This document shows, in pieces, positions 24,117-60,662 of a DNA stretch of 64,000 nt. Origin of the DNA: Candidatus Binatia bacterium (GTDB lineage: Bacteria; Desulfobacterota; Binatia; Bin18); assembly GCA_965231765.1 (NCBI GenBank), contig OZ246887.1:5203823-5267822 (forward strand), given 5' to 3'. The notes under the pieces were generated by a model that was not told the origin of the DNA, did not search any database, and was given only the letters and a program-made list of their open reading frames with translations. Each line of letters starts with the position of its first letter. The first letter of the stretch is position 1. A program made the translations under genes and the position numbers.

Positions 24117-24131
24117 TGAGAACGTTTCCCA

Positions 24132-26660: not shown

Positions 26661-26686
26661 CATGAAATTTTTGAGCTGACAACTGA

Positions 26687-27559
26687 GTGACTATGGAACT
26701 CTCACGCGAGCGACTCATTTTGTATACTGGGGCAGGATTTCTGGGTGGGCTGGCCGGTTGGGCAGCCGCAGACCCATTGGCAAGTCTCGGCAATGTCTAC
26801 GTTCGGGCTCTTGCCCTGGGAGCTGTCATCGGGGTGTTTATTGGTGCGTTTATTGCCTCTATTGAGGGGCTCAGTCGCGGCCACAAAAACCAGATCATGC
26901 AGGGTCTGCAACTCGGTGGGCTAGCTGGTTTGATTGGTGGTGGGACTGGGCTGTTGATGGGCGAACTGGTGTTTGGCCTATTCGGAGGACTGGGCGGCCG
27001 GATTATTGGCTGGGGCATATTTGGTTTGATTGCCGGACTGGGCGTTGGCTGGGTTGGCCGTTCGGTTGCCCGGATGCGGAATGGCATGATTGGTGGAGCA
27101 ATCGGCGGAGCGACTGGTGGAGCACTGTACCAGATTGTGACAGGCTTATTACCTCAGACCGCAGGGCGTGGCCTTGCGCTTGCGCTGCTCGGGGCGATGA
27201 TTGGTTTGTGGATTGGCCTGGTCGGAGAAATCCTCAAGCGAGGCTGGTTTATGGTCATTCGTTCCCAGAGCCGGAATGCCAGAGAAGGCAAAGAATATCC
27301 ACTGGTGAAGGCCAAAACCACGATCGGTCGGGCTGAGGAGAGTGATGTCGGGCTGTTCGGGGATCGCTCAATCTCGGATATGCACGCCGTTGTTGAGCGT
27401 CAGAAAGGGAAATTCCTGCTGGCTCGTGGGCAAGGCATAGTCAAGGTCAATCAGTCGTCAGTGACCCAGCCGGTCCAGCTCAAGAATGGAGACCGAGTTG
27501 AGGTCGGGGGAACACTCCTCCTGTTTCGTGATCGCGCGGCTGTCCCTGAAGAGGCATAA
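26687..27559 (+). CDS. polytopic glycine-zipper membrane protein with C-terminal FHA domain
   Basis: Four or five Gly-rich TM segments (GxxxG repeats). The C-terminal FHA reads TIGRAEESDVGLFGDRSISDMHAVV...NGDRVEVGGTLLLF. Confidence 0.7.
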   Translation: MTMELSRERLILYTGAGFLGGLAGWAAADPLASLGNVYVRALALGAVIGVFIGAFIASIEGLSRGHKNQIMQGLQLGGLAGLIGGGTGLLMGELVFGLFGGLGGRIIGWGIFGLIAGLGVGWVGRSVARMRNGMIGGAIGGATGGALYQIVTGLLPQTAGRGLALALLGAMIGLWIGLVGEILKRGWFMVIRSQSRNAREGKEYPLVKAKTTIGRAEESDVGLFGDRSISDMHAVVERQKGKFLLARGQGIVKVNQSSVTQPVQLKNGDRVEVGGTLLLFRDRAAVPEEA

Positions 27560-27605
27560 GAAGCATACGGGACCGAGACGTCAACACACAGAAAAGTGAA
27601 GCTGT

Positions 27606-32986: not shown

Positions 32987-33850
32987 ATGGTAGACCGTAA
33001 AGCCGATACCGAGCCTCCGCAATTCACGAGGGCTGGCATCGAAAGAGGCATCACCAAGTTAAACCGTCGCATTAAAGACCTGAAAGGTCTCGATCCGAGC
33101 GAAGTCCATCAGTACGCTCCCTCAGTTCAAGTCGTCGAGTCGAACATCCGCGCAGCTATTCATGATGTATTTGGCAAGAATTCCCTGGAGTCTAAGCTGA
33201 AAGGGCTTTCTCTAATACTGTCGCCCGACGGATACAACAATAAGAAAAGTGACGCTGAGCGCCGAGAGGAGTCCTCCAAAATACTCGATCGCGCAGTCAC
33301 GATACTGGAGGGACATATCTTGCGTCTTAAAGAGAAACGCGAAGACCTGGAAGCAGATCAGGGGACTGAGCAGTCGGGTACACTTTCTTCGGACAAGTCA
33401 TCTACGAACAGCCGCCGAGTCTTCGTGGTCCACGGGCGGGACGTGGCAGCGAAGGAGGAAGTTCGCAGGCTTCTAACTCAGTTGAAGCTTGAGCCCGTGA
33501 TCCTTGGTGAACAGCCAGACCAGGGTCAGACGGTCATTGAGAAGTTCGAGGGGAACGCGGACGTGGGCTTCGCGGTGGTCCTTTTGACGCCCGACGACAA
33601 GGGTGGACTGGCTGACTCATCTAATGAGCCTCAGCGACGAGCGCGCCAGAATGTGATCTTCGAACTCGGTTTCTTCGTTGGCAAGCTCGGCAGAAAGAAG
33701 GTCTGCACCCTGTACAAGGGCAATGTCGAGATCATGAGCGATTATCAGGGTGTCATATATGTTCCCATGGATGATGAGGGCTGGCGATTGAATCTCGCAC
33801 AGGAGATTAAGAGCGCTGGCATCAATGTGGATCTGAATCACCTATGCTAG
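32987..33850 (+). CDS. coiled-coil + TIR-like (PF10137-type, predicted nucleotide-binding TIR-like) domain protein; candidate defence effector
   Basis: The C-terminal ~140 aa ([64 protein letters not shown]...[28 protein letters not shown]) match, from memory, the conserved TIR-like family motif set ([35 protein letters not shown]). The N-terminal ~150 aa are charged, helical and coiled-coil-like. Confidence 0.6.
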
Positions 33851-33934: not shown

Positions 33935-34684
33935 ATGAGATCTCGGCTTTGGCTTTCCATTTGTGTCGCCTTAGTGTGGGCCTGGGTGGCGCCACAGCCA
34001 GCAGCGGCGCAAGATGCTGAGGTCGCGGACTGCCTCAAGACCGATCTGGCGCCCGCAGCGAAGGTCGCCGCGTGCCGAGCCGCCGCGGAAAACGGAGACG
34101 CGGATGCGCAGCTCAGGCTCGGTGTCATGTACGACAACGGCCAGGGCGTGGCGCAGGACTATGCGGAGGCGATGACGTGGTTCCGCCGGGCCGCTGCGCA
34201 GGGAAATGCAGGTGCGCAGGTCGCTCTCGGCGTCATGTACGCCGGCGGTCAGGGCGTGCCACAGGACTATGCGGAGGCGATGACATGGTATCGCCGGGCG
34301 GCTGCGCAGGGAAATGCAGGTGCGCAGGTCAATCTTGGCGTCATGTACAGTAAGGGCCGGGGCGTGGCGCAGGACCATGCGGAGGCGCTGGTGTGGTATC
34401 GCCGGGCGGCTGCGCAGGACTATGGGCTTGCGCAGTACAATCTCGGCGTCATGTACAGTAAGGGCCGGGGCGTGGCGCAGGATTATACGCTGGCCCATAT
34501 GTGGTTCAATCTCGCCAGCGCAAGTGGCTACAAGGATGCGTCTGAGGCCCGCAATGAGATGGCAAAGCGCATGACCCTGGCCCAGATCGCTGAAGCCCAA
34601 CGGTTGGCGCGGGAGTGGACGCAGGCATATACGGTAGGGGGGCAAGTAGTGCCAGCCGGGCCAGGCACGGCTGAACGATTTTAG
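33935..34684 (+). CDS. Sel1-like repeat (SLR) protein, secreted
   Basis: Signal peptide. Five tandem Sel1 repeats (LGVMYxxGxGVxQDYAEAMTWYRRAAAQGNAGAQ). Confidence 0.8.
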   Translation: MRSRLWLSICVALVWAWVAPQPAAAQDAEVADCLKTDLAPAAKVAACRAAAENGDADAQLRLGVMYDNGQGVAQDYAEAMTWFRRAAAQGNAGAQVALGVMYAGGQGVPQDYAEAMTWYRRAAAQGNAGAQVNLGVMYSKGRGVAQDHAEALVWYRRAAAQDYGLAQYNLGVMYSKGRGVAQDYTLAHMWFNLASASGYKDASEARNEMAKRMTLAQIAEAQRLAREWTQAYTVGGQVVPAGPGTAERF

Positions 34685-34895
34685 GGAAAAGGACAGACCG
34701 GCCGACGATTCTTCAGTGCGGAGCTTGGGGGTGGGGCCGAACGGCTGCCAAGTCGCCTTCAAAAAGCGCAGCCGTCATTGCACCTCAATAATCACAAAAT
34801 TCTGGCTTGCCTCTTGCCACTCGACCGTCACTGTTGTGTCCGGCTCGGGGAAGTCAGGCAGATTGTACACGCCACTCGCACCTGTCAGACGAACT
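34671..34895. repeat. direct repeat copy A (~97% identical to 41870-42095)
   Basis: A ~225-bp block is almost identical to copy B, with about six mismatches. Weaker homology extends a further ~100 bp upstream into the Sel1 gene 3' end. Confidence 0.7.
34780..34895 (-). pseudogene. remnant 3' end of an LRR/PPC surface-protein gene (paralog of 41981..44773)
   Basis: The reverse strand encodes ...LTGASGVYNLPDFPEPDTTVTVEWQEASQNFVIIEVQ*, identical to the last 37 aa of the 930-aa LRR protein. It has no upstream coding continuation. Confidence 0.6.
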
Positions 34896-34899
34896 GCTG

Positions 34900-37824
34900 C
34901 ATGAGCTTTCGCAGCACAGTCTTCAGATTCAGAGCCGCTATTTCCCCGAGGACAGCGAGTTATGGGTTGACCGCCAACTTGACCGGAACCTGGAAGAGGC
35001 TGTCGGCCGGGACGTCGTTTTTGTCGTTGCCGAGTCGGGTCTCGGCAAAAGCATAGCGTGTCACAAACGCCTGACGGCGCATGTTGAGATGGGAGGGTTT
35101 GGGCTGGTCATTCCGCATCAAATCATTGCTGACTCCCTGTCACTTGAGCAAGCGGTCGGTACGACGCTACGACAGCTCCATCCTTCTCTTGCCTCCGACG
35201 CGGGGAGCGAGGCGCGCGCGCTGGCGTCGGAACGCAAACCATTGTTGATGGTCGTGGAGGATATCAACAAATTTGGACAGCCAATCTCGCTCATCGAACG
35301 GCTGGCGAGCTGGAGCGCGCAGCGGGCAGAACGCAATCAGGTGGCCAGCTGGCAGATTCTTTGTCCGGTTTGGCCTCGGATACTCACAGCGCTTGGTGAT
35401 CAAGCCCGCAAGAAGATCAATGAGTTAGTGCTCACGGCATCTTCCTTCACACCAGAGGAAGGCGCTGCTGCCGTAAACCGCCGTCGCCACCAGGCAGGGA
35501 TTCCAATAACGCAGCTCGACGCAGAAGCGGTGGCGTCGGCTCTGGGTTACGATCCCTTTCTTATCGCCCTACAAGACCTTACGGCAACGCCAGACCCCAA
35601 CCATGTCATTCAAGCCTTTATCAAAGGCAGTCTCGAACGGCTCGCCGAAAGTCGCGGCGAGTTTACAGCGGGGGAATATCGAGAGGGATTGAGGCATCTC
35701 GCTGCCACAATGCTTGAACGGCGACGCCTTGATCTTTCTATGACTGACGTTGCCGCCTAGTTTGAAGACACACCCAGCACCGTAAACATGCTCCGGCATA
35801 TCGTCCGTTTCGGTGAGATCATTCGCGTTACTGGATCTGCCTCGAACGAGCGCTTGGCATTTCGCCATGACCGCGTTCTTGACTGGCTTCTTGCCGATGC
35901 GGCGGCAGACCTCATGCGCCATGGTGCCATCCCCCAGACCGTGCTGACGGAACCGTATTTTGCAGAAATCATCGGTGCTGCACTGGTCCGTGATGCCATC
36001 CCACTTGCAACGGTTGAACAGGTAAGAGTCACTAATCCCCTCGCGCTGTTCTGCGCAATGTCCGTGTTCGGCGAGCCGTGATCTGCACTGTGCCGTCCTC
36101 AAAGCTGCCGAGGCGTGGCTGGACGACGAGACAACACACACACCACACCACGAGAATCTTCGTTGGGCCGCGCGCCGTGTTCTCTCGGAATGTGATGCGT
36201 CCTATGTCATTTCGCTCGTCAAGCGCTTTCGTGAAGAACGAAACGATCGGTGGGGGCTACGCGCCCGTTTCCGCAATGGAGATTTTGGGGCGGGCCTCGT
36301 ACTTTGCAGTCTGTACCAGCCTGGGTTCGGCGTAGTCGGGCATGTGGAATTAATCGATCATGTTCAGCGGCGCCGAGGCAGAGCGCTTGTTCGCACGCTC
36401 AATGCTTTTCTGCGTCACGATCAACTCCCAGCTGCCGGCAGGTCTGGCGCTCTGAGGCTAGCCGGCTACCTCGCTGACCCGACGCTAGCCAGCGCAATTA
36501 AAACGTCCTGGTTGGCCGATACCGGCCGGGATGAGAGGCTCACGGATTATTTATGGGCTAGCGCGCAATGCGGTGGCGAGGATGCAGCCGGACTGTTGGC
36601 ACCGGTCTGCGATAAGTGGGCCGCGCTGCCCGATAAAGCAGACAGAGAGCATTCAGTCTCCTCCCGTAATAATCTCGCAGCGCATGAAATTCGATGGGCG
36701 TTTCGGGACAGAGTCCCTGAGTCGGCAATCCACTACTTCATCGAACAGGCAAAAACATCTGCATTGCGATGGCCGATCACCTTTATGCTGCACGGTATTG
36801 ATCACCCTGACGCGGTTGAGTTTGTTACTCGAGAACTCGCTGCAACTGAAAACTTTTCGCCGTTCGCGATGAACGCAGAAGATGAATGGAAGCGGCAGCA
36901 AGAAAAAACGGGCCGTGCGATGTCGGACGCTTCACGGAACCGGCTGCGTGAATTATGGACGAACAAACAGAATGGAAAACATCTGAGGAATTGGGCTACT
37001 GGTGGCAGGTAGGGCGGTATATCTGGTCGGATGAGCTGACTGAAAGTCTTGATGAGGCGCTAGGCCGGCGGAGCGACCGGGTGGAACGAGCTTGGGACTT
37101 CAATAATGAGATCTCGGCTGACTGTATTCTATCCGAGCGCCTGGTGGAGCTTCCAACGCCGACCGTGGAAGGATTACTGATCAAGCACTGGGATCATTTG
37201 CGTTTTTCATTTTACTATGTGCAAGCGGCTCTTTACACCGTGACTCCCCGACTCATGGAGATGGTCGCGCAAACGGTTGCCAGATGCCCGAACCCCAAAT
37301 CTATGTTTGAGCTCGCAACCAGGCATTTTGGAATCAGGACTAAAGAGCGAACGGGGATCGTGCGCATTGCGCAGCTTCAAGCCCTGTTGCCTTACCTTGA
37401 TCATCTTAGCGATCTGGATGTCCTAAACCTTTGGGAGACGTGCAACGATCATGGCTGGTTTGAATGGCGCCGTCAGCACCTCGATTCGCGTTTAAGGATT
37501 GGCAGGGCAAAAATATATGAAAATGACAACCGAGCAATGGCAGATCTTGACGACATGTTTCCCAAAGGGCTCTGGACTAATCATTGGGCTGACGAGTTTC
37601 TCAAAACCGGTATCTCCGTTGATCACATGATGGAAGTTGTACAGAACTGGTTGAGCCGACAAACAGACATTAGGGCTCTAACGATGGCAGCAGCCATTGT
37701 CGCCCATGCTGGTCAGCGTCGCCATATAAGTATCTTGTCCAGCCATAATATTGAGGCGACAGATCAGACTGGGCCCATCATTGAAGATACGCTTTTTGCG
37801 CTGAAACGGCGGTCTCCAAATTAG
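34900..37824 (+). pseudogene. frameshift-fragmented large P-loop NTPase (STAND/AAA-like) with helical-repeat C-terminal region
   Basis: Consecutive same-strand ORFs (34807-35760, 35788-36081, 36078-36335, 36344-37012, 36955-37824) run frame 1, then 1, 3, 2, 1 with overlaps. The first carries Walker A VVAESGLGKS and Walker B LLMVVEDINKF. The later pieces are alpha-helical. This is consistent with one ~950-aa gene broken by frameshifts. Confidence 0.4.
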
Positions 37825-38263
37825 GAGCAGCCCCCATGGCAGAAACACCCCTCCCTGAACTTCAGCCGGCTTCCGATAACCCATGGTACAGACTCGCTAC
37901 CGCTGGAGAAGATCACACGGACAACATGCGCCGTTGGAATGGCTACATGCGCCATCTGGTTGGGGAGGAGGAGGCGGCCAATTTGAAGCGGGACGATGGA
38001 AAGAATTGCTTCCCGGCAGATCGGCAGAGGCTTCGAGATCGGTGTTTTCAACGGACGCGGTGTACATTGGCGCGGAATGGACGACGGTGGCACCCAGGAA
38101 CGCGACCTTGTCCAAAGTACCGAGGCTGGGCAAAGCTGCGCGCCTTTGACTATCCCTTATGTCAGCAGTGTCCTTGAAAGCCTCGCGGCCAGCTATGACC
38201 GCGAGGCGAAGAGGGCAGATGACAGAGTGGAAATCAGAAAGAGGCTGGGACGTCGAACAAAAC

Positions 38264-38683
38264 TCATGCTCTTCCCCGACCTTTCAGCCCGTGTGGGGCG
38301 AGGATCGGCACGGAAAACACCAGAGCCAGGGTCAGCAGGTCCTCGTCACCCGTCACCAGGGCATCAGCCTGGCCCACCAGCGCCAGTTCGAGAAAAGGAC
38401 GGTCGAACGGGTCACGACACGCCGGGACGGCCGACGGTTCCGACACGCTGACCGTCTCGCACCAGGGCAGATAGTCGGCCAACAGATCTTCTCGCTCATC
38501 GTCGGTTAGCTGGAACTTGGCGTAGGACAGCACCCGAATCAATTCCGCCGTCGTCTCGCGGCTGGCCAGCGGCACAACGGCTCGCGCCTGCCACGCGTCG
38601 CGCAGCCAAGACACCGTTCCTGACGGGAACAGCAAGGCCGACACCAGGACATTGGTATCGAGCACCAACCGCCGAAAACTCAT
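38264..38683 (-). CDS. vapC: PIN-domain (VapC-type) toxin
   Basis: LVLDTNVLVSALL (first acidic residue), then a conserved ...TGDEDLL... acidic cluster. The start overlaps the antitoxin stop (ATGA). Confidence 0.7.
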   Translation of the reverse strand: MSFRRLVLDTNVLVSALLFPSGTVSWLRDAWQARAVVPLASRETTAELIRVLSYAKFQLTDDEREDLLADYLPWCETVSVSEPSAVPACRDPFDRPFLELALVGQADALVTGDEDLLTLALVFSVPILAPHGLKGRGRA

Positions 38684-38904
38684 TGAGCCTGGCGTGCCCA
38701 CGCCACGGCTTCTGCCACGTCCGTTTCGGACAAGCCCAGCTCGGCCAGTTTCGCCCGCACGGCATTAGCTCGGGTGAGCCGCACAGGGGTCAGCACGAGC
38801 CGCCCATTTTCGTGGGTGACATCGAAGTACTCTGTCCCCTGGAAGGCGGACACCAGCGCTTTCGGCAGGGTGAGTTGGTTCTTGGAAGTCAGTTTGGCAA
38901 GCAT
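38680..38904 (-). CDS. vapB: AbrB/MazE/SpoVT-family antitoxin
   Basis: 74 aa with a swapped-hairpin motif (LTSKNQLTLPKALV). It lies immediately upstream of the PIN gene and overlaps it. Confidence 0.65.
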   Translation of the reverse strand: MLAKLTSKNQLTLPKALVSAFQGTEYFDVTHENGRLVLTPVRLTRANAVRAKLAELGLSETDVAEAVAWARQAQ

Positions 38905-39210
38905 GGAGACATCTTCCTTATTCTGTTGTAAGGAAACAAGGATAAAGAAGATCCTTTCTCAGGGCAAGAGGAGGGACGACCGTCGCCTCACTTGATCCGA
39001 CCGTCGTTTTTGCTGTCTTTTGTCACTGGAGGGATCTCACTCGGCCCAGCCTGGTGGACGAACTGAGGGCGGGAGCAGGGCAGACTTGGTTTCTGCTCTC
39101 TGCGGCCGCTCCCTTAATCATCGGTTCCCTCTTGATGAATAGTATACATATAACTAAACTTTTTCTATCTGTGCCAAGGAGAAGGGAAAGGAGGGGAGGG
39201 GAGGATGCTT

Positions 39211-39590
39211 TGACGCAAATTGTCGCTGAGGGAAAATGGGGAAGGGTCGAGTGGGCGACAGACCGAAACGGGAATATGCCCGCGCGGTCTTATTATTCGG
39301 ACCTTCCTGATAGCGACAAAGCAAAAATCCTCGCTCTTTTCAACTTTTTGCGATTTCTTCAAAACCGGGAGAAACTCAAAAAACTAGGCAGTAAGGCAAA
39401 AGGGAAAGACTCAGAATTGTGGGAATTCAAGAGCTTTCAACATCGTTTTCTCGGTGATTATAGGCCACACAGCCGCTTTATTATCGCGCGTGCGCTTCAG
39501 AAAAAAAGCGATAACTTGCCAACATCTGATATTGCACGAGCCATTCGTATTCTCCCAGAAAACGACCAGCGAGAGGAAGGAATGCCATGA
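39211..39590 (+). CDS. higB: HigB/RelE-superfamily (Gp49-like) toxin
   Basis: ...GKDSELWEFKSFQHRFLGDYRPHSRFIIARALQKK... resembles the Gp49/HigB family. The ORF opens at 39054; the start is placed at TTG 39211 after GGAGGGGAGGGGAGG, and is uncertain. The stop overlaps the downstream HTH gene (ATGA). Confidence 0.5.
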
Positions 39591-39940
39591 ATCGCCCCTC
39601 CACGGACTATGAACTTTTTGAGCAATCCTCAGATCACAACAGACGGCTTCTGCGAGAGGAAGAGTTGATCCTGGAGGTGACAGAAGCGGTCAGCGCGGTG
39701 ATGCAGGAAGAAGGCATCTCTAAAGCCCGGCTCGCAAAGCGCCTGGGGAAAACCAAAGGATTCATTTCCCAGCTCTTGTCGGGCGGACGGAATCTGACCC
39801 TGCGGACGCTCGCTGGCCTTGTTGATGCGTTGGGATATCGGGTCACCATTACGGTTTCCAAGAATCGTGATAGCAGGTCTGTCGGCAGCGAGTCTCCTGA
39901 CCTCAGAGTCATCAATATCGAATCTTGGTCTTCCCCCTAG
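39587..39940 (+). CDS. higA: HTH (XRE/HigA-like) antitoxin with short C-terminal extension
   Basis: HTH reads ISKARLAKRLGKTKGFISQLLSGGRNLTLRTLAGLVDALG, and a ~25-aa tail follows. Its position after the toxin matches a HigBA-type reversed TA arrangement. Confidence 0.6.
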   Translation: MNRPSTDYELFEQSSDHNRRLLREEELILEVTEAVSAVMQEEGISKARLAKRLGKTKGFISQLLSGGRNLTLRTLAGLVDALGYRVTITVSKNRDSRSVGSESPDLRVINIESWSSP

Positions 39941-40017
39941 ACCCAGCCGCCGGTTTGGAGGGAACCCACTGTCAGTATTCCTCTCCAAACCTCAGTTAGT
40001 GACTATGGAGCAGCAGC

Positions 40018-40494
40018 ATGAGCAAGGCAGCTGATGGCCTGAAACGATTGATTGCGGAGGTCGAGATTGAAGGGGTGCGCCTCGTTGAAGCAAACGCGGA
40101 AACGAAGGTGCGGTCGCCGGAAGACACTGGCGCTGTTGATCTCTTGGTCAATCGAACGGCCGGGATTAGCGAGCGTCAAGAAAACGGGATGTTTTTTGTT
40201 GTGGCAACCATCAGGGCTCAACTTGTCTCTGAAGAGGCGAAGGAGGAGCCTCTGGTCTCGATCGAGACGAGTTTTGAACTCCAGTATCGCCTCCCTGAAG
40301 GATTGCGCGTCGATCCTCAAGCTCTGACAACCTTTGCCGAGACGAACGGGATCTATAATGCCTGGCCCTATTGGCGTGAGTTTGTGCAAAGCACGTTGGC
40401 CCGGATGGGACTCCCGCCAGTCGTGCTCCCGTTGTTACGCGCTCGGGAGGTGAAGGAGAAGACAGAAGCCGAGAAGGCAGAGGGGGTGGTATGA
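40018..40494 (+). CDS. SecB-like chaperone (TAC-system-type)
   Basis: 158 aa. Blocks align to E. coli SecB: VEANAET vs FEAPNAP, FFVVATIRAQLVSEE vs YEVVLRVTVTASLGEE, and AWPYWREFVQSTLARMGLPPVVLPLL vs [26 protein letters not shown]. Confidence 0.55.
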   Translation: MSKAADGLKRLIAEVEIEGVRLVEANAETKVRSPEDTGAVDLLVNRTAGISERQENGMFFVVATIRAQLVSEEAKEEPLVSIETSFELQYRLPEGLRVDPQALTTFAETNGIYNAWPYWREFVQSTLARMGLPPVVLPLLRAREVKEKTEAEKAEGVV

Positions 40495-41306
40495 AGTCAG
40501 ACCTCATTAGCAAAGCGACCCGGAACGCGTTTCGAGAAACTCTTGTGAATTACTCTCTTCGTCAGATAGACACGATTTTTGATGGGGCAGGACTGAGTCC
40601 CAAATTGGATCACAATCCGAGCGTACCAGGCCAACGGCGCACCTTGGTCGAGCAGTATTACGCTGGTATCGACTTTCGCTCTCCGAGCGATATCGACCAA
40701 CTCCTCTCTGCTTACGGAGAGCTAGTATTGCAAATGGGAGGCTCCGACGAACCGCTCTGCAGAGATCTTCTGCAACGCATGGAACAGGATGGGTACTCCT
40801 ATCAAGCAGGGAGCTTCATTCAGCTGCCAAACAGACAACAACCTCTCGTCGCCACTATCCAGTCTTACGCGGTCGCTCTTGATCTCGAAGGACTGCAAAG
40901 CCAAATCCATCGTCTTACTCAGGCTGCTGAAAATGATCCCCCTCTAGCCGTGGGAACAGCAAAGGAGATGGTGGAGACAATCTGCAAGACTATCCTTGAA
41001 AAAAGAGGTGTATCTACAGATGACAAAGAACTGCCAAAGCTTGTCCGTGCGACAGCTAAAGAACTCGCCCTACTGCCGGGGACTGTTCCCGACAATGCGA
41101 AAGGTTCAGAGGCCATTCGTCGGCTGCTCAGCAACTTGAACCAAGTCGCCCAGGGGATGGCGGAGCTCCGTAACCTCTATGGCACCGATCATGGTCGCGC
41201 TGGACGTGTCAAGGGTATACAGCCTCGACACGCTAGGCTCGCCGTCGGAGCGGCGACAACCCTGGCCACTTTCTTGCTGGAAACACATCTGGAGCGCAGT
41301 CCGTAG
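40491..41306 (+). CDS. HEPN-superfamily / Abi_C-like (abortive-infection C-terminal domain) protein
   Basis: The start overlaps the SecB-like stop (ATGA). The C-terminal ELRNLYGTDHGRAG carries an Rx4-6H HEPN motif in the position typical of Abi_C-family proteins. Confidence 0.55.
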   Translation: MKSDLISKATRNAFRETLVNYSLRQIDTIFDGAGLSPKLDHNPSVPGQRRTLVEQYYAGIDFRSPSDIDQLLSAYGELVLQMGGSDEPLCRDLLQRMEQDGYSYQAGSFIQLPNRQQPLVATIQSYAVALDLEGLQSQIHRLTQAAENDPPLAVGTAKEMVETICKTILEKRGVSTDDKELPKLVRATAKELALLPGTVPDNAKGSEAIRRLLSNLNQVAQGMAELRNLYGTDHGRAGRVKGIQPRHARLAVGAATTLATFLLETHLERSP

Positions 41307-41869
41307 GTGCCAGCCTCATGGTTCGCAGACAAGGACTCAAATGCATAACCGACGTGCTGGCCTGGATCAAAGCGCAGGGTGCCAGCTATCAGACCCGGAT
41401 GAACGCCGTGTTCCGGGCCTTCCAGGAAGCCACCAGATAATCGGGGGTCCGGAGATTCTCCTACACTGACGAGGGTAGACCCCTCACAGTCGAGCGAAGA
41501 GCCGGGGCAACAGAGACAAAAAAGGAGGAGGAAATCATACCCAGATGCAACATCTTATTGCGTCGTCTAGGAGACAGGTTTGGGCCGGTCTTCTCGGCTC
41601 GTTCTCCTCTGCTCTTGTCGTTGTTAAAATCCTCGGGTTTGGAAAGCAGGTTACAATAACCGGGAAAGTAGACTCCGTTGACCTGATATCTATTTATCTG
41701 AAGGAATGTGAATTGGTCGATGAGTAGATTTCGCGCAATCCTGCCGGCAGGCCACAGGCAAACGCCTCCCACTTCCAAGCTTGACACTTTGTCCCTTACC
41801 AGACGGAGCGGGTGGCGCGGCCTTATGTGGGCGGAGGAAAATCAGGGACTTACAGAGCCAGTCGAGCCC

Positions 41870-42095
41870 GGCGGGGCTGGACGATTTTAGAGAAAAGGAC
41901 AGATCGGCCGACGATTCTTCAGTGCGGAGCTTGGGGGTAGGGCCGAACGGCTGCCAAGTTGTCTTCAAAAAGCGCAGCCGTCATTGCACCTCAATAATCA
42001 CAAAATTCTGGCTTGCCTCTTGCCACTCGACCGTCACTGTTGTGTCCGGCTCGGGGAAGTCAGGCAGATCGTACACGCCACTCGCGCCCGTCAGA
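41870..42095. repeat. direct repeat copy B (partner of 34671-34895)
   Basis: Covers the last ~115 bp of the LRR gene plus ~110 bp of downstream sequence. Upstream of it (41700-41890) lies a degenerate remnant resembling the Sel1 gene C-terminus (...EPVEPGGAGRF* vs ...VVPAGPGTAERF*). Confidence 0.7.
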
Positions 42096-44773
42096 AACGT
42101 CTCGCCCAGGGTGGTGACGGTAAACGTTGCCCGCCCAAACTCTTTGCCGTCGGCTAAGGCCCGCACGGTGTGCTCGCCGTCGCCGAACTCGTTCCAGTTC
42201 AGCCGCAGTCCGAAGCCGGTGTTGGTGTCGTCGCATAGCTCCGTCATATCCTCCCGACTCGCGCCAAAGGCGGCCTCAAAGGTCGCCGTGCCATCAATTT
42301 CAATCTCGACCTGCTCGGCCCCACACACCCAGCCCGACACGAGGCCGATTCCGCTCTGGAACGAGCCGGCAACAGGATTTTCCAACATGCCGGGCAGATC
42401 GCTCTGGGCGGCCGGATCGCTCTGGGCGGGCGGACTCTCGGCAGGAGGTGAAACCGCGGCAATCACAAAGTTCTGCAATGCCTCTTGCCACACGAGCCGT
42501 ATCTGTTGCCCCATGTCGGGAAAGTCGCTCAGCAGGTAGTCGCCCTGTACGCCGGTCAGGAACTCCACGCCGAGCGTTGTCACGCTAAAGGTGGCCGTGC
42601 CGAACTCCAGCCCATCGGCCAAGGCTCGCACTGTATGCTTGCCGTCGCCGAGCAGATTCCAGTTCATCCCCAGTACGAAGCCATTATTCCGGTCGCCGCA
42701 GGGCTCCAGGCTATCCTCCCGGTCGGTCCCGTATGGAGCGGTCAGGACGGCTTCGCCGTCGATTTCCAGCTCGACCAGCTCAGCCTCACATACCCAGCCC
42801 GAAATGAACCCGATACCACTCTGAAAAGTCTCGGGTCCCAGTATGTCCAAGGCACCAACAACGAAGTTGACGACGAGCGTGTACTGCCCGGTCAAGGCGC
42901 CATAGCCCCGCACCGCTACCTCATACGTCCCGGCGGCGACGGGCGCGACCAGCAGGAAATTCTGGCCGTCGCCGCTATCGTCGTCTCTCGCAATCTCCTC
43001 GCCCGCTTGCCACAGGGTCCCGACGGTGTCCATATGGCCGGTCGTCTCGACTGTCAGCGTCCCGGCTTGGGGCACGGCAATTTGGAAGTAATCGACATCA
43101 CCCGCCGGTCCAATCTGGCCCGAGGTTGATGAAGCGGGCTCGACGTGCGTAGCGGTGCCTGGCACATCAGCGTGGGCGTCAACGGGCGGAGTCAGCGGGG
43201 CGACGTCCGGTTCAAACGGTTCGCTTGATACGGTCGGCATCAAACCCCGGTAGCAGGGGAGGTCGAGGAAGGAGCAGGAGTCGCTTGGAAGCGCCGGCGC
43301 GGCACCCAGCGTGATCCGTACCGGGCCTCCAGTCGGGATGACGGTAATCGCGTCGCTGGTGACGCCGCCCCTAGCCACGGTGACCGACGGAGCTGACAAG
43401 GTCGCGCCGGTCACGGACAGGTCGACCGTCATGGCGAACGGCGCGCCGGAAGCGACCTTGACGGCGACTCCACCGGAAGGCGTGGTGTTCTCCAGCGTCA
43501 TCGCCACGGGAAAGGGGGCACCAGGGTTGGCGTTGAGCCACACTTGCCGCAGGCTGGTGAGACCGGCAAACACCTTGGGCGGCAGGCTGGTAAGGTGGTT
43601 GCCGCTGAGATCTAAGACCTGCAGGCTGCTCAGGCCGGCGAAGAGCGTCGGTGGCAGGGTGGTGAGTTGATTCGTGTCAATCTCTAATCTCACTAGATTG
43701 GTCAGGCCGGTAAAGACATCGGGCGGGAGGGCGGTGAGGCGGTTGCGGTCAAGGAACAGGATCCCCAGATTGGTCAGGCCGCTAAACACGTCGGGCGGGA
43801 GGGCGGTGAGATCGTTTTCGTGGAGATACAAGCTTTGCAGATTGGTCAGGCCGGTAAAGATGCCGGGGGGGAGGGTGGTGAGGTGGTTGTCGTGGAGATA
43901 CAAGCTTTGCAGATTGGTCAGGCCGGTAAAGATGCCGGGGGGGAGGGTGGTGAGGAAGTTATTCCTGAGCGATAAGTATTCCAAGCTGGTGAGGTTGGCA
44001 AACACGTCGGGGGGAAGAGTAGTGAATTCGTTTCCAGAGACCACCAGGGTCTCCAGATTGGTCAGGCCGGCAAAGAGGCCGGGGGGGAGGGTGGTGAGGC
44101 GGGTGTCGTTGAGCCACAAGTACACCAGATTGGTCAGGCCGGCAAAGACGTTGGGCGGGATGTCGGCGAAGTCGTTGTCGTCCAGATCCAAAATTCTCAA
44201 GTTGGTCAGGCCGGCGAAGACGTTGGGGGAGAGGCTGGTGAGATCGTTGTGCCACAGATTCAGCTGTCGCAAGTTGGTCAGGCCGGCGAAGACGTTGGGG
44301 GGAAGGGTGGTGAGGTCGTTGCCGTAGAGATCCAACTGCTCCAAGTTGGTGAGACCGGCAAAGTCACCCGACTGTAATGTTTCTATGCGTTCGGAGCCCA
44401 GACTCAAAACACTAATGCGGCCGAGCTGGTCGGGCGTCACATCGGCGCAGGTTACCTCGCCTCCGACTATAGCGACGAGGGCGTCTCGCACCTGTGGGGT
44501 CCGGTCGCAGACACCAGACTGCGTCTGCGCCTGAGCGGTGGAAGACAGCGCTAGCAGGCTCATGGTCAGGAGGAAGAGAAGGCAGGCTCTTCCTATGCTC
44601 CAGTGGTGGCATCCCTGCTCCTGAGGCCCCCGGCCTAGTGGACAGGCAGCCAGAAAAAGACAAGACATGGCGAACTGCGCCACGCCTGGGACATTATTGT
44701 AGGTGCTGGAGGGGGAATCCATTCTGTCTGTGCCTCTTAAGCGGTGCATCATAATAGACAGCTGCCATACCAA
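41981..44773 (-). CDS. secreted leucine-rich-repeat (LRR) protein with PPC (pre-peptidase C-terminal) domain and two tandem ~135-aa C-terminal domains of unknown type
   Basis: About 13 units of LTNLxxLxLxxNxLTTLPPxxFAG (24-aa LRR). Then GDVDYFQIAVPQAGTLTVETTGHMDTVGTLW (PPC-like). Then two homologous domains (FQSGIGxxSGWVCxAExVExEIDG...HTVRALADGxEFGxATFxVTTLG...WQEAxQNFVI). The signal-peptide-like N-terminus makes the exact start uncertain. Confidence 0.8.
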   Translation of the reverse strand: MVWQLSIMMHRLRGTDRMDSPSSTYNNVPGVAQFAMSCLFLAACPLGRGPQEQGCHHWSIGRACLLFLLTMSLLALSSTAQAQTQSGVCDRTPQVRDALVAIVGGEVTCADVTPDQLGRISVLSLGSERIETLQSGDFAGLTNLEQLDLYGNDLTTLPPNVFAGLTNLRQLNLWHNDLTSLSPNVFAGLTNLRILDLDDNDFADIPPNVFAGLTNLVYLWLNDTRLTTLPPGLFAGLTNLETLVVSGNEFTTLPPDVFANLTSLEYLSLRNNFLTTLPPGIFTGLTNLQSLYLHDNHLTTLPPGIFTGLTNLQSLYLHENDLTALPPDVFSGLTNLGILFLDRNRLTALPPDVFTGLTNLVRLEIDTNQLTTLPPTLFAGLSSLQVLDLSGNHLTSLPPKVFAGLTSLRQVWLNANPGAPFPVAMTLENTTPSGGVAVKVASGAPFAMTVDLSVTGATLSAPSVTVARGGVTSDAITVIPTGGPVRITLGAAPALPSDSCSFLDLPCYRGLMPTVSSEPFEPDVAPLTPPVDAHADVPGTATHVEPASSTSGQIGPAGDVDYFQIAVPQAGTLTVETTGHMDTVGTLWQAGEEIARDDDSGDGQNFLLVAPVAAGTYEVAVRGYGALTGQYTLVVNFVVGALDILGPETFQSGIGFISGWVCEAELVELEIDGEAVLTAPYGTDREDSLEPCGDRNNGFVLGMNWNLLGDGKHTVRALADGLEFGTATFSVTTLGVEFLTGVQGDYLLSDFPDMGQQIRLVWQEALQNFVIAAVSPPAESPPAQSDPAAQSDLPGMLENPVAGSFQSGIGLVSGWVCGAEQVEIEIDGTATFEAAFGASREDMTELCDDTNTGFGLRLNWNEFGDGEHTVRALADGKEFGRATFTVTTLGETFLTGASGVYDLPDFPEPDTTVTVEWQEASQNFVIIEVQ
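43821..43964. repeat. two near-identical tandem 72-bp LRR coding units
   Basis: 43821-43892 and 43893-43964 are identical for the first ~62 bp (tggagatacaagctttgcagattggtcaggccggtaaagatgccgggggggagggtggtgag). G7/C7 homopolymer runs recur in neighbouring units. Confidence 0.7.
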
Positions 44774-45104: not shown

Positions 45105-45509
45105 GTGATGAAAACAGTTCAGAGTTTCGTGACGGCCGGGGCGCTAGTGGCTTGGGCGACCCTCTTCAACGTCGGAGCAGCGCCAGGAGAAGCTGCGGCT
45201 GTGCTGGAGGAAAGAGAGCTGGTGACCAGGCAGCAATGCCGCGTGGACGAGCATGCCCCTTTGCTGCTGGTCCACGGACGATCCCGTCATTCCTCCCCCC
45301 ATCCTCCCCCCTATTACCCGCTCCCGCCCTATCCTCCGCTTGTCTATCCCCCGTCTTCCCCCTACTATTCCCCGTACTCCGCTGCCGCCATCTGTCGCAA
45401 CCAACTCCGGTTCTGTCACCTGAAGGTCGCCATGCCAGTCGGCGCGCCGTGTGTTTGTGCTGCGCCGGTTGGCGGGGTGTGGTTCAGTGGTTGGGTGACG
45501 TTCTATTAG
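45105..45509 (+). CDS. small secreted Pro/Tyr-rich hypothetical protein
   Basis: Signal-peptide-like N-terminus (MMKTVQSFVTAGALVAWATLFNVGAAPGEA) followed by PHPPPYYPLPPYPPLVYPPSSPYYSPY. It lies in a gene-poor GC-rich stretch. Weak. Confidence 0.3.
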   Translation: MMKTVQSFVTAGALVAWATLFNVGAAPGEAAAVLEERELVTRQQCRVDEHAPLLLVHGRSRHSSPHPPPYYPLPPYPPLVYPPSSPYYSPYSAAAICRNQLRFCHLKVAMPVGAPCVCAAPVGGVWFSGWVTFY

Positions 45510-48010: not shown

Positions 48011-49348
48011 CTACTCTGCTGGGAGATTCTTTGCCCGGCGCAGGTCGGCCCGGCGCAGGTCGGCCCCGCTCAGGTCGGCCCGGCGCAGGTCGGCCCCGCT
48101 CAGGTCGGCCCGGCGCAGGTCGGTCCCGCTCAGGTCGGCCCCGCTCAGGTTGGCCCGGCGCAGGTCGCCCCGGCGCAGGTCGGCCCCGCTCAGGTTGGCC
48201 CGGCGCAGGTCGCCCCCGCGCAGGTCGGCCCGGCGCAGGTCGGCCTGGCTCAGGTCGGCCCGGCTCAAGTCGGCCCCGCTCAGGGTGGCCTCGCTCAGGG
48301 TGGCCTCGCTCAGAGTGGCCTCGCTCAGGGTGGCCCCGCTCAGGGTGGCCCCGCTCAGGGTGGCCCCGCTCAGGTCGGCCCCGCTCAGGTCGGCCCGGCG
48401 CAGGTTGGCCCCGCTCAGGTCGGCCTGGCTCAGGGTGGCCCAGATCAGGTTGGCCCGGCGCAGGTTGGCCCCACTCAGGGTGGCCTGGCTCAGATTGGCC
48501 CCGCGCAGGGTGGCCTCGCGCAGGGTGGCCCCGCTCAGGTCGGCCCAGATCAGGTTGGCCTCGCTCAGGGTGGCCCCGCTCAGGTCGGCCTGGCTCAGGT
48601 CGGCCCCACTCAGGTTGGCCTGGCTCAGGTCGGCCCGACGCAGGGAGGCCTCGCGCAGTTTGGCCAGGTTCAGGTCGGCCCGGCGCAGGGAGGCCCCGCT
48701 CAGGTCGGCCCGGCGCAGGGTGGCCAGGATCAGGGTGGCCCGGTGCAGGGTGGCCAGGCTCAGGGTGGCCCCGCTCAGGTCGGCCCGGCGCAGGGTGGCC
48801 CCGCTCAGGTCGGCCCCGCTCAGGTCGGCCTCGGGTATGACGACCCCGGCCAAATGCGTGTTGCGTAAATCAAGACGATCATCGCGCCTGTTCGGGCCCG
48901 GTGTTGCCCGCCGGCCAATAACGGTCAGGATCGCTTGGATGTCGGGAGGCGGCTTTTGGGCGGCGTTTGGAGAGAAGTCCCCCTGTCTGGGCGCCCGCTC
49001 TCGGACGTAGGCCGTCAAGGCTTCCAGGATCAGGCCGTGGTCTTGCTCTGAATCTGTGGCCAGCTGGCCCAGGGCCTCAATCCCGCACAATCGGATTGCC
49101 AGGGTGGCATCTGCCAGTTGCGCAATCGCTTGGGGCACATCCGGCTTGTCGCGGCAGCCCGTTACTTGTGCACTCAGCAACGGGGGAACGCACCAGAAGA
49201 GAGCCACCACTACCGCGAGTAGGGAGATGCGCCAGCTGAGGCAGAATGTCTTCACATCAGAGAATGCCATGCTCACCATCATAGCCCGCCCGGGAGCGCC
49301 GCAAAAAAATAATTTCAAGGCGATTCCCCCTTCCTCAGTGAACGTCAA
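48011..49348 (-). CDS. pentapeptide-repeat protein with N-terminal membrane anchor and helical domain
   Basis: More than 50 consecutive A(D/N)LSx pentapeptides (ADLSGADLSGATLRRADLSGATLS...). The N-terminal region has a hydrophobic helix. The true start may be at MMVSMAFSD (49282). Confidence 0.75.
   Translation of the reverse strand: MTFTEEGGIALKLFFCGAPGRAMMVSMAFSDVKTFCLSWRISLLAVVVALFWCVPPLLSAQVTGCRDKPDVPQAIAQLADATLAIRLCGIEALGQLATDSEQDHGLILEALTAYVRERAPRQGDFSPNAAQKPPPDIQAILTVIGRRATPGPNRRDDRLDLRNTHLAGVVIPEADLSGADLSGATLRRADLSGATLSLATLHRATLILATLRRADLSGASLRRADLNLAKLREASLRRADLSQANLSGADLSQADLSGATLSEANLIWADLSGATLREATLRGANLSQATLSGANLRRANLIWATLSQADLSGANLRRADLSGADLSGATLSGATLSGATLSEATLSEATLSEATLSGADLSRADLSQADLRRADLRGGDLRRANLSGADLRRGDLRRANLSGADLSGTDLRRADLSGADLRRADLSGADLRRADLRRAKNLPAE
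48041..48830. repeat. 15-bp-periodic coding repeat (caggtcggccccgct / caggtcggcccggcg variants)
   Basis: The pentapeptide-repeat gene DNA is composed of ~50 tandem degenerate 15-mers. This creates long spurious ORFs in all frames on both strands. Confidence 0.7.
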
Positions 49349-54527: not shown

Positions 54528-57500
54528 CTAATACCGTTGCCGCCAAATAATATCAGCTCCGCTCGACCCTTTTGAACTCGTTGTCGTTCTCAGGTCTATG
54601 TTGGGGCTAATCTCATAATCGATGGCAACTTCTTGGCCAGCTTTTCCGCCCACGCTGTGCGAGGCAGAAATCCGGGTTTTACGATTGAGATTGCGTCCAA
54701 ACCTGACTTGCCCCCCCGAAAAACCAACATCGCTGAGATTTAAGCCGAGACCTAAGTCGAGTTCACTCAAGCCCAGTGCATCTGCCACAGATCGGCCAAT
54801 AGCCGAGGCGGCATAGCCGGTGAGAGACACGGCTTGTTGCTGGAGATTGGCCTGTTCACCTTTGCCGAGTGCGCTGGCAGGCTTGCCAAACAGGAGGACG
54901 GACAAAATATCGGCCTGTTCCAGGGCGGGGTTGCTACGCAGGTCCAGGCTCGGCTCTTCTCTCGTGCCGCTGACCACTGCATCTATGCGGTAGTCCTCAT
55001 GTTCGTACTGAGCCACGATATCGAGTCGAGGGTTAATCTTGGTCCCGCCAGTAAAAGTGATCTTGCCCTGATCCAGCTCGAAGCGGTGACCCTGAAAGCC
55101 GACCCAGCCGCGGGGTAATGCAATAGCCCCGGCAACGCGGGACTCCTCTCCGCGTTTTTTGCTCACATCAAGGTCGCCAGTCAAGGTTATATTGGCGTTC
55201 TGATGCAGGATACGGGTGTTCTGATGCAGGTGGATGGCCAGTTGCATTGCCAGATTGAGAAAAGGGTCCCCTTCAGATGGGGTGGCGGCGGATGTGGTCT
55301 CCGGTGTGGCTTCTGTCATGGGAGGCGCCTCAGCACTCGAACGGACAATAATCGTCTCGTCCCGACTCAGAGGATGGGCTGACAAGAAAGACAGGGCCGG
55401 TTGCAAGGTGGCTTGCCACACATCAACCTGGCCGTTGACTGTGGGAGCCTTGAGAGGCCCTTGGGCTTTGATTTGACTGTCAATTTCAACTTGATATTGG
55501 CGTGTCCAAATCACCGGCCAGTGATCAGCTGTCATGCTGAGGTCTAGTATCTCAGGCTGGTAGTCTTTAAGGGCGAAGGTGGCCTGCGTCTCAAACGTGC
55601 CTTCACGGGCTTTGGCTAACAGCTGCGTGATCTGGATCTGCTCAGGACTGACGGTTCCAGTGAGAGTAATGGGGGCAACCGTGAGGCCCAAAGGTTTGAC
55701 CGTGGCCTGTCCCCCTTTCAGCTCAAACGTGCCGTTGACACGGGGCTTTTCAACCGGGCCGTCGGCTTGTATATCGAGGTGAATCTCGCCCCCAATGTCA
55801 TGCACGGATTTGCCGCTCAGCCCATTCAGAAAGGCAAGACTCAGGCCCTCTGAATGGACATGAAAAGAGGGCTCGCCTACGAGTGCAGACTGAAATCCGT
55901 TTGCCCAACTGAGCGAGATCGGCAAATAGCCCTGTGCCTGGAGGGTGTGGTCCGTATCTTGCTGAAAAGTCAGATCCAGACTGACCTTTTTTTGCTGATA
56001 ATCGATTCTTGTCTTCAGCCCTGCGTAGGCTTGAGACGCAATCTTCAGGGCGTCTAAGCCCGCCTGACCAGATATGGTTGGCGCAGCTGCCGTTCCCGTA
56101 AGCTGAATATCCGCCGAGAAAATGCCACTGACCTCGAGGCCGGGTGGCAGGAAATCTGTGAGGTTATCCAAGAAGAAGTCTGTAATCTGCAACTGTAAAT
56201 CCTGTGGGCCTGTGGTGGCGACCGAGCCGTTCAGCAATATCTGCTGGTTCTGCTGGGCTTGATTCGTCAGGACAAAACGGTCGATGCTCAGCCCGCTTGG
56301 CTGGTGCTGAATCGTGACTGGCCGGGCGAGCTGCCAGGTGCCGATGGGCAAGGCCAAGGACAACTCCTGGAGTTGGGCGTGTATCTGGTCTGCCTGGGCG
56401 AGGACCTCAGCTTGCAAGCGATGGCGGCGCTGAGGGGCTTCTTTCTCTTGGGCCTTGAGGCTGATGTGTACCCGTTGAGTGTCTGCTGTTTGGGCTGGCA
56501 GGAGTTGAATATCTGCATCAACCGATTGCAGCGCCAGGCCGGCATCCAGATCTGTGAGACGAACGCTGACGGTTGCCTGAGGGTGGGCTTGGCCAAGCTC
56601 AGCCGCCTGAAACTGCATAGCGGCATTGGCAAGTGTGAAGCCGGGTAATGTGAGGGCTTTGGCGCGGAGTGTTCCCTCGGTCTGTAAATTGGCCAGACTG
56701 CCCGTCGCCGCGCCTTTGAGCGCGATTTGGCCGGAACCGTCTTGGCCGGCCAAGGCCAGCCAGGGCGTGAGTTGATCGACCTGGAGCGAGTACGACAGCT
56801 GGCCAATCTCTTCAAGGGCAGTGCCGAGTTCGCCCTCAATACTGACTGACGCATCTGGGGTAATGAGGGTGCCTTCAGACAGGTGAATACGGCCATTTGC
56901 AATCTGAGCAATAAACCGCCCATGTGTGACCTGTACGGGGCCGACCGTAGACGGCTGAATAGTGAGATCGGCCTGTGTATGCATACTTGGCAGGTCAAAT
57001 CCTGTTCCCTGGACCGTGCCGGATACGTTGAGTTCTCCGCCAAGAGATTCCTGCCCAGCAACAACTTTCTGCAAGGACAGATGGTCAGCGGCAAAGCTCA
57101 GGTCATAGCGGGGGGGCTCTGGCAGAGCAAGCGTGGCCTGCCATGTTGCGTGGCCGACACTGCCTGTCAGCTCTCCGCTCAGCGTGGCCATCTCGTGCGC
57201 AATGGAACCCTGGACTGATACTGTCCCCAGCCGCATATCTGCCACTTGCAGCCCGCTGATAGCGAGGTCGGTTGTGGCTTCTAAGGACGGGAAAGAAGCG
57301 CCGACTCCGCGTGCCTGGAGCGTGCCGTCGACAACCGCCCGCACGTCGCCGACATCGCGGATGAGTTGCGGGATATCAAGCTGGGTGAGAGAGACTGTCG
57401 CCTGATAGGTTTGATACGCCTGATCGTCTTGATTCAGGTTTGCCTGTGCCTTGACCTGAATAGTAGCGTCGGCGGTTTTGATCAGCCCAGTCGTATGCAG

Positions 57501-60414: not shown

Positions 60415-60662
60415 GATTGCGGCACGCACAGTAGCTGGGAATCTCACCGTTGTAAAGCGTCTAAAAAGTCTCGCCCAGCGGCCATAGCTGGTGAGCGAGT
60501 ACAAGCCAAAAGCAGAACCATTCTGATTTGCTGTAGTCTTCTCCGTGTGTGTCGAGATGCTCAAGTTGCAGATGCTCAAGTCCCGCGCCTCGCTGGTCCA
60601 GTTTCACCAAGCCTATCGATAGCTGGTTGTATCTTGCTACAATGGCGGTGGAGGATGCAGGT

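Follow-up and report, generated by a model that had tools for sequence, protein, structure and literature searches.

Eukaryote-like leucine-rich repeat protein of a Candidatus Binatia bacterium and the predicted Binatia-centred tandem domain family at its C-terminus

Eukaryote-like proteins with leucine-rich repeats (LRRs), fn3, cadherin and TPR domains are enriched in sponge microbiomes (PMC9531527); as this class is summarized there, the sponge-symbiont eukaryotic-like proteins (ELPs; Reynolds & Thomas 2016 as cited in PMC9531527) are bacterial proteins with eukaryote-type extracellular repeats. Here we describe an LRR protein of this kind, encoded in a 64,000-nucleotide stretch from a Candidatus Binatia bacterium (assembly GCA_965231765.1, contig OZ246887.1, positions 5,203,823 to 5,267,822; hereafter the window), whose C-terminal tail is a tandem pair of modules that, by profile search, constitutes a large, unnamed, Binatia-centred domain family. 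The likeness to the ELPs goes beyond the repeats: orthologs of the LRR gene occur in sponge-derived metagenome-assembled genomes (MAGs); relatives sharing the tail carry fn3, cadherin, LDL-receptor and SRCR domains, which overlap the sponge-enriched classes; and genes for a Sel1-repeat and a pentapeptide-repeat protein lie close to the LRR gene. In contrast, the ELPs, as that summary presents them, are defined by repeat class alone, and neither the shared tandem tail nor its domain is described in the literature searched; moreover, the tail family is also found in MAGs that do not look sponge-derived.

Two other sets of described systems offer points of comparison. With the Listeria internalins and the Leptospira LIC proteins, this protein has in common an architecture of signal peptide and LRR solenoid, followed by a beta-rich domain and a region for surface attachment at the C-terminus; the PDB sequences matched by its LRR array include LIC11098, LIC10831 and LIC12759, and there is a partial match to the NCBIfam model LIC_11051. 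However, the internalins have LRRs of the 22-residue class as against the 24-residue "typical" class here, and the internalin and LIC models of NCBIfam all score far under their cut-offs. An identity as an internalin was rejected (internalin_K, 21.7 bits against 1100; internalin_J, 10.2 against 1700; no LPXTG, GW or LRR_adjacent domain in Pfam). For the tail itself, the S-layer homology (SLH) domains are the textbook analogy of a shared docking module, being used in multiples and at either terminus. Both they and the C-terminal domain (CTD) of type IX secretion system (T9SS) cargo resemble the Binatia pair in that one conserved module type is mounted on many unrelated exported proteins per genome. 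The T9SS CTD is, in addition, an Ig-like sandwich, as are the Binatia modules, but it is single, ~80 residues long and strictly C-terminal, whereas the SLH domains are helical; neither has a sequence relationship to the Binatia pair.

The protein begins with a signal peptide, after which 13 LRRs form a Cys-capped array; a post-LRR segment and a PPC-fold domain then lead to the two homologous modules (Table 1). An earlier note, made from the letters of this DNA alone, had read the order as an LRR array, a PPC-like sandwich and two homologous modules of about 135 residues, and this order is correct; its array of about 13 units of 24 residues resolves into 12 regular units (residues 138-425) and one preceding unit (residues 114-137). 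The modules, which that note could not classify, have 59% amino-acid identity to each other (71% at the DNA level) and indeed lack a Pfam, NCBIfam or PDB-sequence family: with the single sequence, neither Pfam-A nor NCBIfam yielded a match; a search of PDB sequences with both the single sequence and a 61-sequence profile returned nothing at E<=10; and no Pfam family covers the pair region in the relatives scanned.

The AF2 model of the pair (pLDDT 93.5, pTM 0.87) places the two modules confidently relative to each other, and predicts in each about 12 strands, arranged as a beta-sandwich, and a single short helix. The nearest described folds are E-set/Ig-like accessory domains, such as the mannanase Ig-like module and the sulfite oxidase dimerisation domain, with identities of 13-21% over ~100 of the 135 residues. 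The Binatia modules differ from these in possessing extra C-terminal strands, a Cys pair and the specific motifs LENP...SGWVC and WQxxxQNFVI, and a Foldseek search of the PDB found no solved structure with the Binatia two-module arrangement, returning generic tandem-Ig matches at TM ~0.2. The earlier note had named a match of the modules to a well-known domain as a refutation of its reading: a general Ig-like fold is what emerged, without a family. We also considered whether the modules could be divergent PPC domains and rejected this, as the PPC region and the modules match different fold families.

As a family, the modules are recognized by the motifs LENPxxxSFQSGIGxxSGWVC, YGTxRxDT, CGDxxNGFG, NWN, DFP and WQxxxQNFVI together with one Cys pair, and about 50 positions of the family alignment are invariant or nearly so, including the two Cys of each module. 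The protein of the window carries the two consecutive ~135-residue modules by which the family is defined, at 200-210 bits each; it departs from the consensus at the opening of module 1, where ALDILGPETFQS takes the place of LENP, and in the CDDTNTGFG of module 2. Within the protein, purifying selection is strongest on module 2 (dN/dS 0.17 across orthologs), while the linker between the modules is its least conserved segment (64% amino-acid identity, dN/dS 0.73). Five orthologs (L004, L005, L008, L009 and L011) have a Cys-rich insertion of ~45-60 residues in a loop of module 1, after ...VELEFDGE, which is absent from the window's gene; thus, this loop tolerates large insertions.

The earlier note had suggested looking for other genes with the tandem module, and a profile search against 1.84 billion representative proteins, clustered at 50% identity, uncovered a large family: at least 3,314 clusters contain the module at E<=1e-3 and 1,710 at E<=1e-30. 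In a parallel genomic search, in which each species was represented by a single genome, relatives are encoded in at least 530 stretches, the best 80 of which were used for analyses of loci. Almost all members come from Candidatus Binatia MAGs or from MAGs labelled Deltaproteobacteria/Thermodesulfobacteriota; individual genomes hold many paralogs, single ones supplying 11-12 of the best 80 loci, and at some loci two or three module genes stand side by side. The unit is nearly uniform in number: two modules, no more and no fewer, are present in 141 of the 145 representatives and in 85 of the 94 genomic ORFs, with four modules (two pairs) appearing now and then. It is less so in position: the pair forms the extreme C-terminus in 114 of the 145 representatives (79%) and in 85% of the genomic ORFs, but lies N-terminally, directly after the signal peptide, in 25 representatives (17%) and in 9 of the 94 ORFs. 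Among 42 sampled members the passengers are fn3 (10), LRR (8), cadherin (6), cadherin-like (5) and He_PIG (5) domains, with LDL-receptor class B (3), SRCR (2), Calx-beta (2) and CARDB (2) being rarer.

Identity is 70% between the two modules of one protein but 56% between modules of different proteins, whichever of them are compared, indicating that the two halves are kept alike within each gene and suggesting, at the sequence level, that they evolve together as a matched pair. The same figures led us to reject the alternative that modules 1 and 2 are anciently distinct subtypes.

A conserved unit, attached to unrelated adhesion passengers and found at either terminus, makes retention or docking at the envelope the most likely role for the pair, judging by analogy with the systems introduced above. 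We therefore propose the following scheme: (i) the LRR solenoid would bind a protein ligand of the host or the environment; (ii) the tandem pair would be the common handle of the family, acting as one unit irrespective of its position in the protein; (iii) this handle would most likely retain or dock the protein at the envelope through a conserved envelope component or partner; (iv) many eukaryote-like adhesion domains could thereby be displayed on the same footing. Taken as a whole, the picture of a eukaryote-like LRR adhesin set on a Binatia-specific tandem handle, with the pair docking at the envelope, is one on which we are evenly divided. Several observations weigh against it: the fold match of the modules is to generic Ig-like/E-set domains only and comes with no functional label; clustering of the ORFs around the 80 loci revealed no conserved neighbour gene that might serve as a partner or in secretion; viral contigs, scanned for module-bearing phage proteins that could have hinted at a ligand in the envelope, yielded no relatives; and the module also occurs in MAGs with non-sponge-looking names (K_Offshore_80m, GL45_Down). 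The last of these ties the module to the lineage as such and not to symbiosis, to which it is probably not specific. A more far-reaching version, in which the pair is the anchoring or recognition element of an undescribed surface display system particular to Binatia, a functional counterpart of the SLH and T9SS CTD systems that mounts the whole eukaryote-like adhesion repertoire, in sponge symbionts too, is more tentative, and we would sooner expect it to fail than to hold.

The best-surviving alternative is that the pair is a lectin or carbohydrate-binding module (CBM) directed at a target outside the bacterium, be it host matrix, a glycoprotein or a polysaccharide, giving the protein a second adhesive end in place of an anchor on its own cell. 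The invariant Trp, Asn, Asp, Gln and Arg residues (in NWN, GTxRxDT, GDxDNGFG and WQxxxQNF) are of a composition typical of sugar or Ca2+ sites, and some fold neighbours are associated with glycoside hydrolases (GHs). Nevertheless, the GH Ig-like domains that were matched are mostly spacers without shown sugar binding, and no CBM family scored in Pfam; further, a single ligand for diverse passengers, in at least 10 copies per genome, would fit a ligand on the cell's own surface at least equally well. On balance, we consider a lectin function unlikely.

A weaker contender is an oligomerisation or lattice unit, through which the proteins bearing the pair would assemble into an S-layer-like or fibre-like coat. 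Such a unit would accord with the compactness and confidence of the modelled pair (pTM 0.87), with the co-evolution of its halves within each protein and with the likeness to the sulfite oxidase dimerisation domain. That likeness, however, exists only at the level of the general fold, and the intramolecular pseudo-dimer already fills the dimer-like interface, leaving a lattice role distinctly improbable in our estimation.

Less probable again is a secretion or sorting signal after the manner of the T9SS CTD, recognized by a dedicated machinery and then removed or modified after export. The prevalence of the pair at the extreme C-terminus and its use as a shared tag on many cargo proteins per genome do reproduce the T9SS pattern, but the N-terminal pairs exclude a C-terminal signal role for the proteins that have them. 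The unit is also double and ~290 residues long; no sorting-domain model of Pfam or NCBIfam, including TIGR04183, scored at E<=1; and secretion genes do not recur near the loci. In the window's protein the chain ends as ...QNFVIIEVQ, 4 residues past the last strand, with no hydrophobic or motif tail after module 2, and no sequence resembling a sorting tag follows module 2 in this protein or its relatives. A PEP-CTERM, LPXTG or GlyGly-CTERM-type tag was likewise rejected, there being no NCBIfam match and the protein stopping right after its last strand.

The only neighbour family that recurs among the 80 loci and is not an artefact is a luciferase-like monooxygenase, assigned by eye. In nine genomes (L003-L011) the gene immediately upstream of the LRR ortholog is of this kind, resembling a luciferase-like (F420-type) oxidoreductase and 94-100% conserved; it is absent from L001, L002 and the window, and divergent paralogs are scattered near other module genes. 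It was rejected as a functional partner because the adjacency is confined to one clade, with variable position and strand elsewhere. On the contig of one relative the neighbours are unrelated (SecA, YkuD and acyl-CoA dehydrogenase).

Turning to the passenger carried by the window's tail, there is nothing unusual in the LRR protein as a eukaryote-like adhesin, and it is the tail that gives it interest. Its units have the consensus LxxLxLxxNxLxxLPxxxFxGL and match Pfam LRR_8 (PF13855) in 6 stretches with an E-value of 1.6e-75 and 249.2 bits against a cut-off of 27. The best matches among PDB sequences are animal ectodomains, namely those of IGFALS, LRRC15, LGR4/5, LRRTM and TLR3, followed by plant LRR-RLKs and the Leptospira LIC proteins; hence, the array is of the eukaryote-type "typical" class and not the short bacterial class. 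The type III LRR effectors (XopL, XopAC, XopAE, SlrP and SspH2) were rejected as relatives: their NCBIfam models score 46.6-99.6 bits against cut-offs of 450-1243 and span the LRR part only, and whereas such effectors lack a Sec signal peptide, one of Sec type is present here, along with four Cys pairs.

Across orthologs, every domain of the protein is under purifying selection, and the array, at a dN/dS of 0.42, is the least constrained of the folded parts. In a comparison of 12 orthologs the most variable unit positions are 8, 9, 11, 13, 19 and 23; of these, positions 8, 9, 11 and 13 are the x residues of LxxLxLxxN on the concave strand face, where ligand contacts are expected. Such concave-face variation fits a putative binding surface whose specificity drifts between lineages.

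The start codon is most likely M36, because homology to the 11 orthologs begins in the alignment at GRGPQ, 11 residues past it; the alternative M18 is preceded by a better Shine-Dalgarno-like sequence (AAGAGG). The signal peptide has a long n-region, the h-region ACLLFLLTMSLLALSS and a predicted cleavage site after AQA, so that the mature chain is predicted to start after ...STAQA (residue 82). The eight Cys of the mature chain fall into four local pairs (89/109, 500/507, 662/692 and 817/847), as would be expected of an extracytoplasmic protein; the protein is, as predicted from these features, exported and disulfide-bonded. The window also codes for TamB (54528-58418) and an Omp85/TamA homologue (58444-60579), indicating that the organism has an outer membrane, i.e., is a diderm. 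Scans for promoters and terminators around the LRR gene gave nothing above shuffled expectation.

Between the array and the pair, the post-LRR segment has no Pfam family match and is poorly modelled (pLDDT 38-59), because few homologs cover it and the alignment is shallow; its amino-acid identity among orthologs is 84%. The PPC-like sandwich that had been read from the sequence stands as a fold, that of the beta-sandwich of the collagenase collagen-binding domain, but not as a sequence match: PPC (PF04151) reaches 18.5 bits with the whole protein and 20.9 with the fragment, under the Pfam cut-off of 25.9, and the NCBIfam model FDP_fam gives 24.7 bits in this region, its cut-off being 29. With the PPC domain of clostridial collagenases this region shares the D-x-D-Y-F start motif. 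It differs in its sub-threshold score and in lying internally, between the LRR array and the tandem pair; the PPC domain is a C-terminal extension of secreted peptidases that is removed after secretion, and no peptidase domain is found here in Pfam. A PPC-fold domain directly precedes the pair in just 12 of 37 aligned relatives, the remainder having a Gly/Pro-rich linker leading straight into the pair; thus, it is an optional accessory, which might function as a spacer or in matrix-binding.

Whole-gene orthologs number 11, with 83-87% DNA identity, and all are from Candidatus Binatia MAGs; there is no synteny between the flanks in the window and the loci of the orthologs. A few further matches of the window are likewise to Binatia loci. 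Some of the MAGs bear isolate names of the form jk18x..bins, which is the naming of MAGs from Caribbean Ircinia sponges, a set from which 14 Binatia MAGs were recovered (PMC9531527); Binatia MAGs from HiFi reads are also listed in sponge genome notes. The organism is probably a sponge associate, a picture with which the neighbouring genes of the window agree, among them those for the Sel1-repeat and pentapeptide-repeat proteins and several of defence type (Table 1).

The array contains an unusual DNA repeat. The adjacent near-identical 72-bp units seen in the earlier note correspond to an exact 66-bp tract in two copies (Table 1): 64 of 72 bases agree between units 7 and 8, as opposed to 36-60 in all other pairs of units, and the next longest in-register identical run in the array is 32 bp. 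The recurring G7 runs are also real, with three G7 and two G6 on the plus strand. Neither observation extends to the recent unit duplication and capacity for repeat-number variation that had been drawn from them. The 11 orthologs, at 13-17% DNA divergence, align over the entire array without any indel and have the same LRR count; hence, no unit has been added to the window's array. Units 7 and 8 agree at 54-61 of 72 bases in the orthologs, and LPPGI and NLQSLYLH, which are the same in both units of the window, differ there between the two units. The pattern of the 66-bp identity instead fits gene conversion over a short stretch within the gene, on the lineage leading to the window. The G runs are in-frame CTC CCC CCC GG codons of the LPPG motif, recurring because the LRR units are homologous. 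Hence a contingency locus, in which duplicated units and G/C homopolymers drive repeat-number or phase variation of a surface antigen, is very hard to credit: the exact 66-bp repeat at a 72-bp spacing and the three C7 and two C6 tracts of the coding strand could be cited for it, but 12 orthologs have equal numbers of LRRs in an indel-free array despite that divergence, the tracts are merely repeated Leu-Pro-Pro-Gly codons, the frame is intact and 7 bases are short for slipped-strand switching. The array is stable and not a variable-number locus, which removes a misleading lead. Elsewhere in the window, homopolymers of 8-9 G or C, longer than those of the LRR gene, occur at 20909, 26292, 46054 and 47079.

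Table 1. Positions of the LRR gene, its parts and neighbouring features in the window
Feature	Position	Strand	Details
LRR protein ORF, maximal	41981-44773	minus	930 codons; from the ORF list
Probable CDS	41981..44668	minus	895 aa from M36; alternative start M18 at 44722
Sec-type signal peptide	44528..44668	minus	residues 36-82; read from sequence; kept in 11 orthologs
N-terminal cap	44435..44527	minus	Cys pair C89/C109; highest ortholog amino-acid identity of the protein, 91.5%
LRR array	43499..44434	minus	13 LRRs of 24 aa, "typical" eukaryote-like class; Pfam LRR_8, unit register
Post-LRR beta-rich segment, then Pro-rich linker	43175..43498	minus	residues 426-533; linker with Cys C500, C507
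PPC-fold (collagenase collagen-binding-domain-like) beta-sandwich	42854..43174	minus	residues ~534-640; motif DVDYF...TLTVETTG
Tandem module 1	42449..42853	minus	residues 641-775; Cys pair 662/692; 199.6 bits with the module HMM built in this analysis
Inter-module linker	42392..42448	minus	residues 776-794; Pro/Ser/Ala/Glu-rich; lowest model pLDDT block, 69
Tandem module 2	41984..42391	minus	residues 795-930; Cys pair 817/847; 210.4 bits with the module HMM
Exact 66-bp copies	43818-43883, 43890-43955		72 bp apart; span the unit 6/7 and 7/8 boundaries
G runs	43865, 43937, 44081 (G7); 44009, 44297 (G6)	plus	
PADLOC candidate defence family PDC-S35 protein	32987-33850	plus	TIR-like effector similarity; E 4e-78
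Secreted Sel1-repeat protein	33935-34684	plus	Pfam Sel1, E 3.3e-38
Copy A of the 242-bp repeat	34648..34889		true Sel1 gene end GTAERF*, spacer, LRR-end remnant
Gp49/HigB-like gene	39054-39590		in the insert
PD-T4-9_C-like gene	40018-40494		in the insert
AbiJ/Abi_C-like gene	40491-41306		in the insert
Copy B of the 242-bp repeat	41854..42095		last 115 bp of the LRR gene, spacer, vestigial Sel1-gene end GGAGRF*
Pentapeptide-repeat protein	48011-49348	minus	445 aa; Pfam, E 6e-113; in the GC-rich block

The LRR gene sits in a block of the window (~42-50 kb) with 61-64% G+C, compared with ~54.5% for the rest, and this block also includes the pentapeptide-repeat gene, whose DNA is a long array of ~80%-identical repeats at many offsets (48030-48848). 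Orthologous LRR genes elsewhere have a G+C equal to that of at least their upstream flank (0.60-0.63), which, set against the contrast seen here, raises the possibility that the block may have been acquired from a Binatia relative of higher G+C. The Sel1 gene is, at 65% G+C, as GC-rich as the LRR block and has internal DNA repeats of ~111 bp (34074-34505). Divergent from the LRR gene is an ORF (45105-45509, plus strand) with a signal-peptide-like N-terminus and a Pro/Tyr/Ser-rich middle, PPPYYPLPPYPPLVYPPSSPYYSPY, for which no family match was found. Further away on the plus strand there is a signalling cluster (22392-29168) encoding a fusion of a kinase with PP2C (22392-24116), a Ser/Thr kinase (24132-26660) and a protein with VWA and FHA domains (27606-29168). 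The window, which is chromosomal DNA, also codes for a phosphoglucomutase and a glutamate-synthase domain protein.

The 3' end of the LRR gene is involved in a direct repeat of 242 bp with 93.8% identity (34648-34889 and 41854-42095). The truncated paralogous 3' end that the earlier note had reported about 7 kb away is thus real as a repeat, though it is not a second gene: it is a duplicated junction of convergent genes, in which the LRR-end remnant of copy A spans 37 codons (34778-34888, minus strand) and is 97% identical to the gene end. Since each copy holds both gene ends, the ancestral Sel1 and LRR genes converged on each other, and the repeat is, on this comparison of its copies, the duplicated Sel1/LRR junction flanking an inserted segment of ~7.0 kb (34890-41853, 55% G+C). 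The insert contains a putative fragmented gene with a GLGKS motif in its first piece, a HigB-like gene and a PD-T4-9_C-like/AbiJ-like pair, and looks like a defence cassette lodged between two genes for eukaryote-like proteins. No integrase or transposase was detected with Pfam and PADLOC in the insert ORFs scanned; the segment may possibly have entered by Campbell-type integration, as a circular element that brought its own copy of the junction. Within 34807-37824 (plus strand), five same-strand ORFs (34807-35760, 35788-36081, 36078-36335, 36344-37012 and 36955-37824) are consecutive and may represent a single large NTPase gene that frameshifts have split; the first has the P-loop-like GLGKS motif, and the four that were scanned gave no family match save a marginal one in PADLOC.

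The implications of these observations lie chiefly with the tail. As a marker, the pair offers a sequence handle with which the surface or secreted adhesin set of Binatia could be listed; as a defined construct of 290 residues with a confident model, it lends itself to binding and structural work; and the domain family merits a database entry. Sponge symbionts are noted for the many eukaryote-like proteins they carry, and in this one uncultured lineage much of that repertoire shares the tail.

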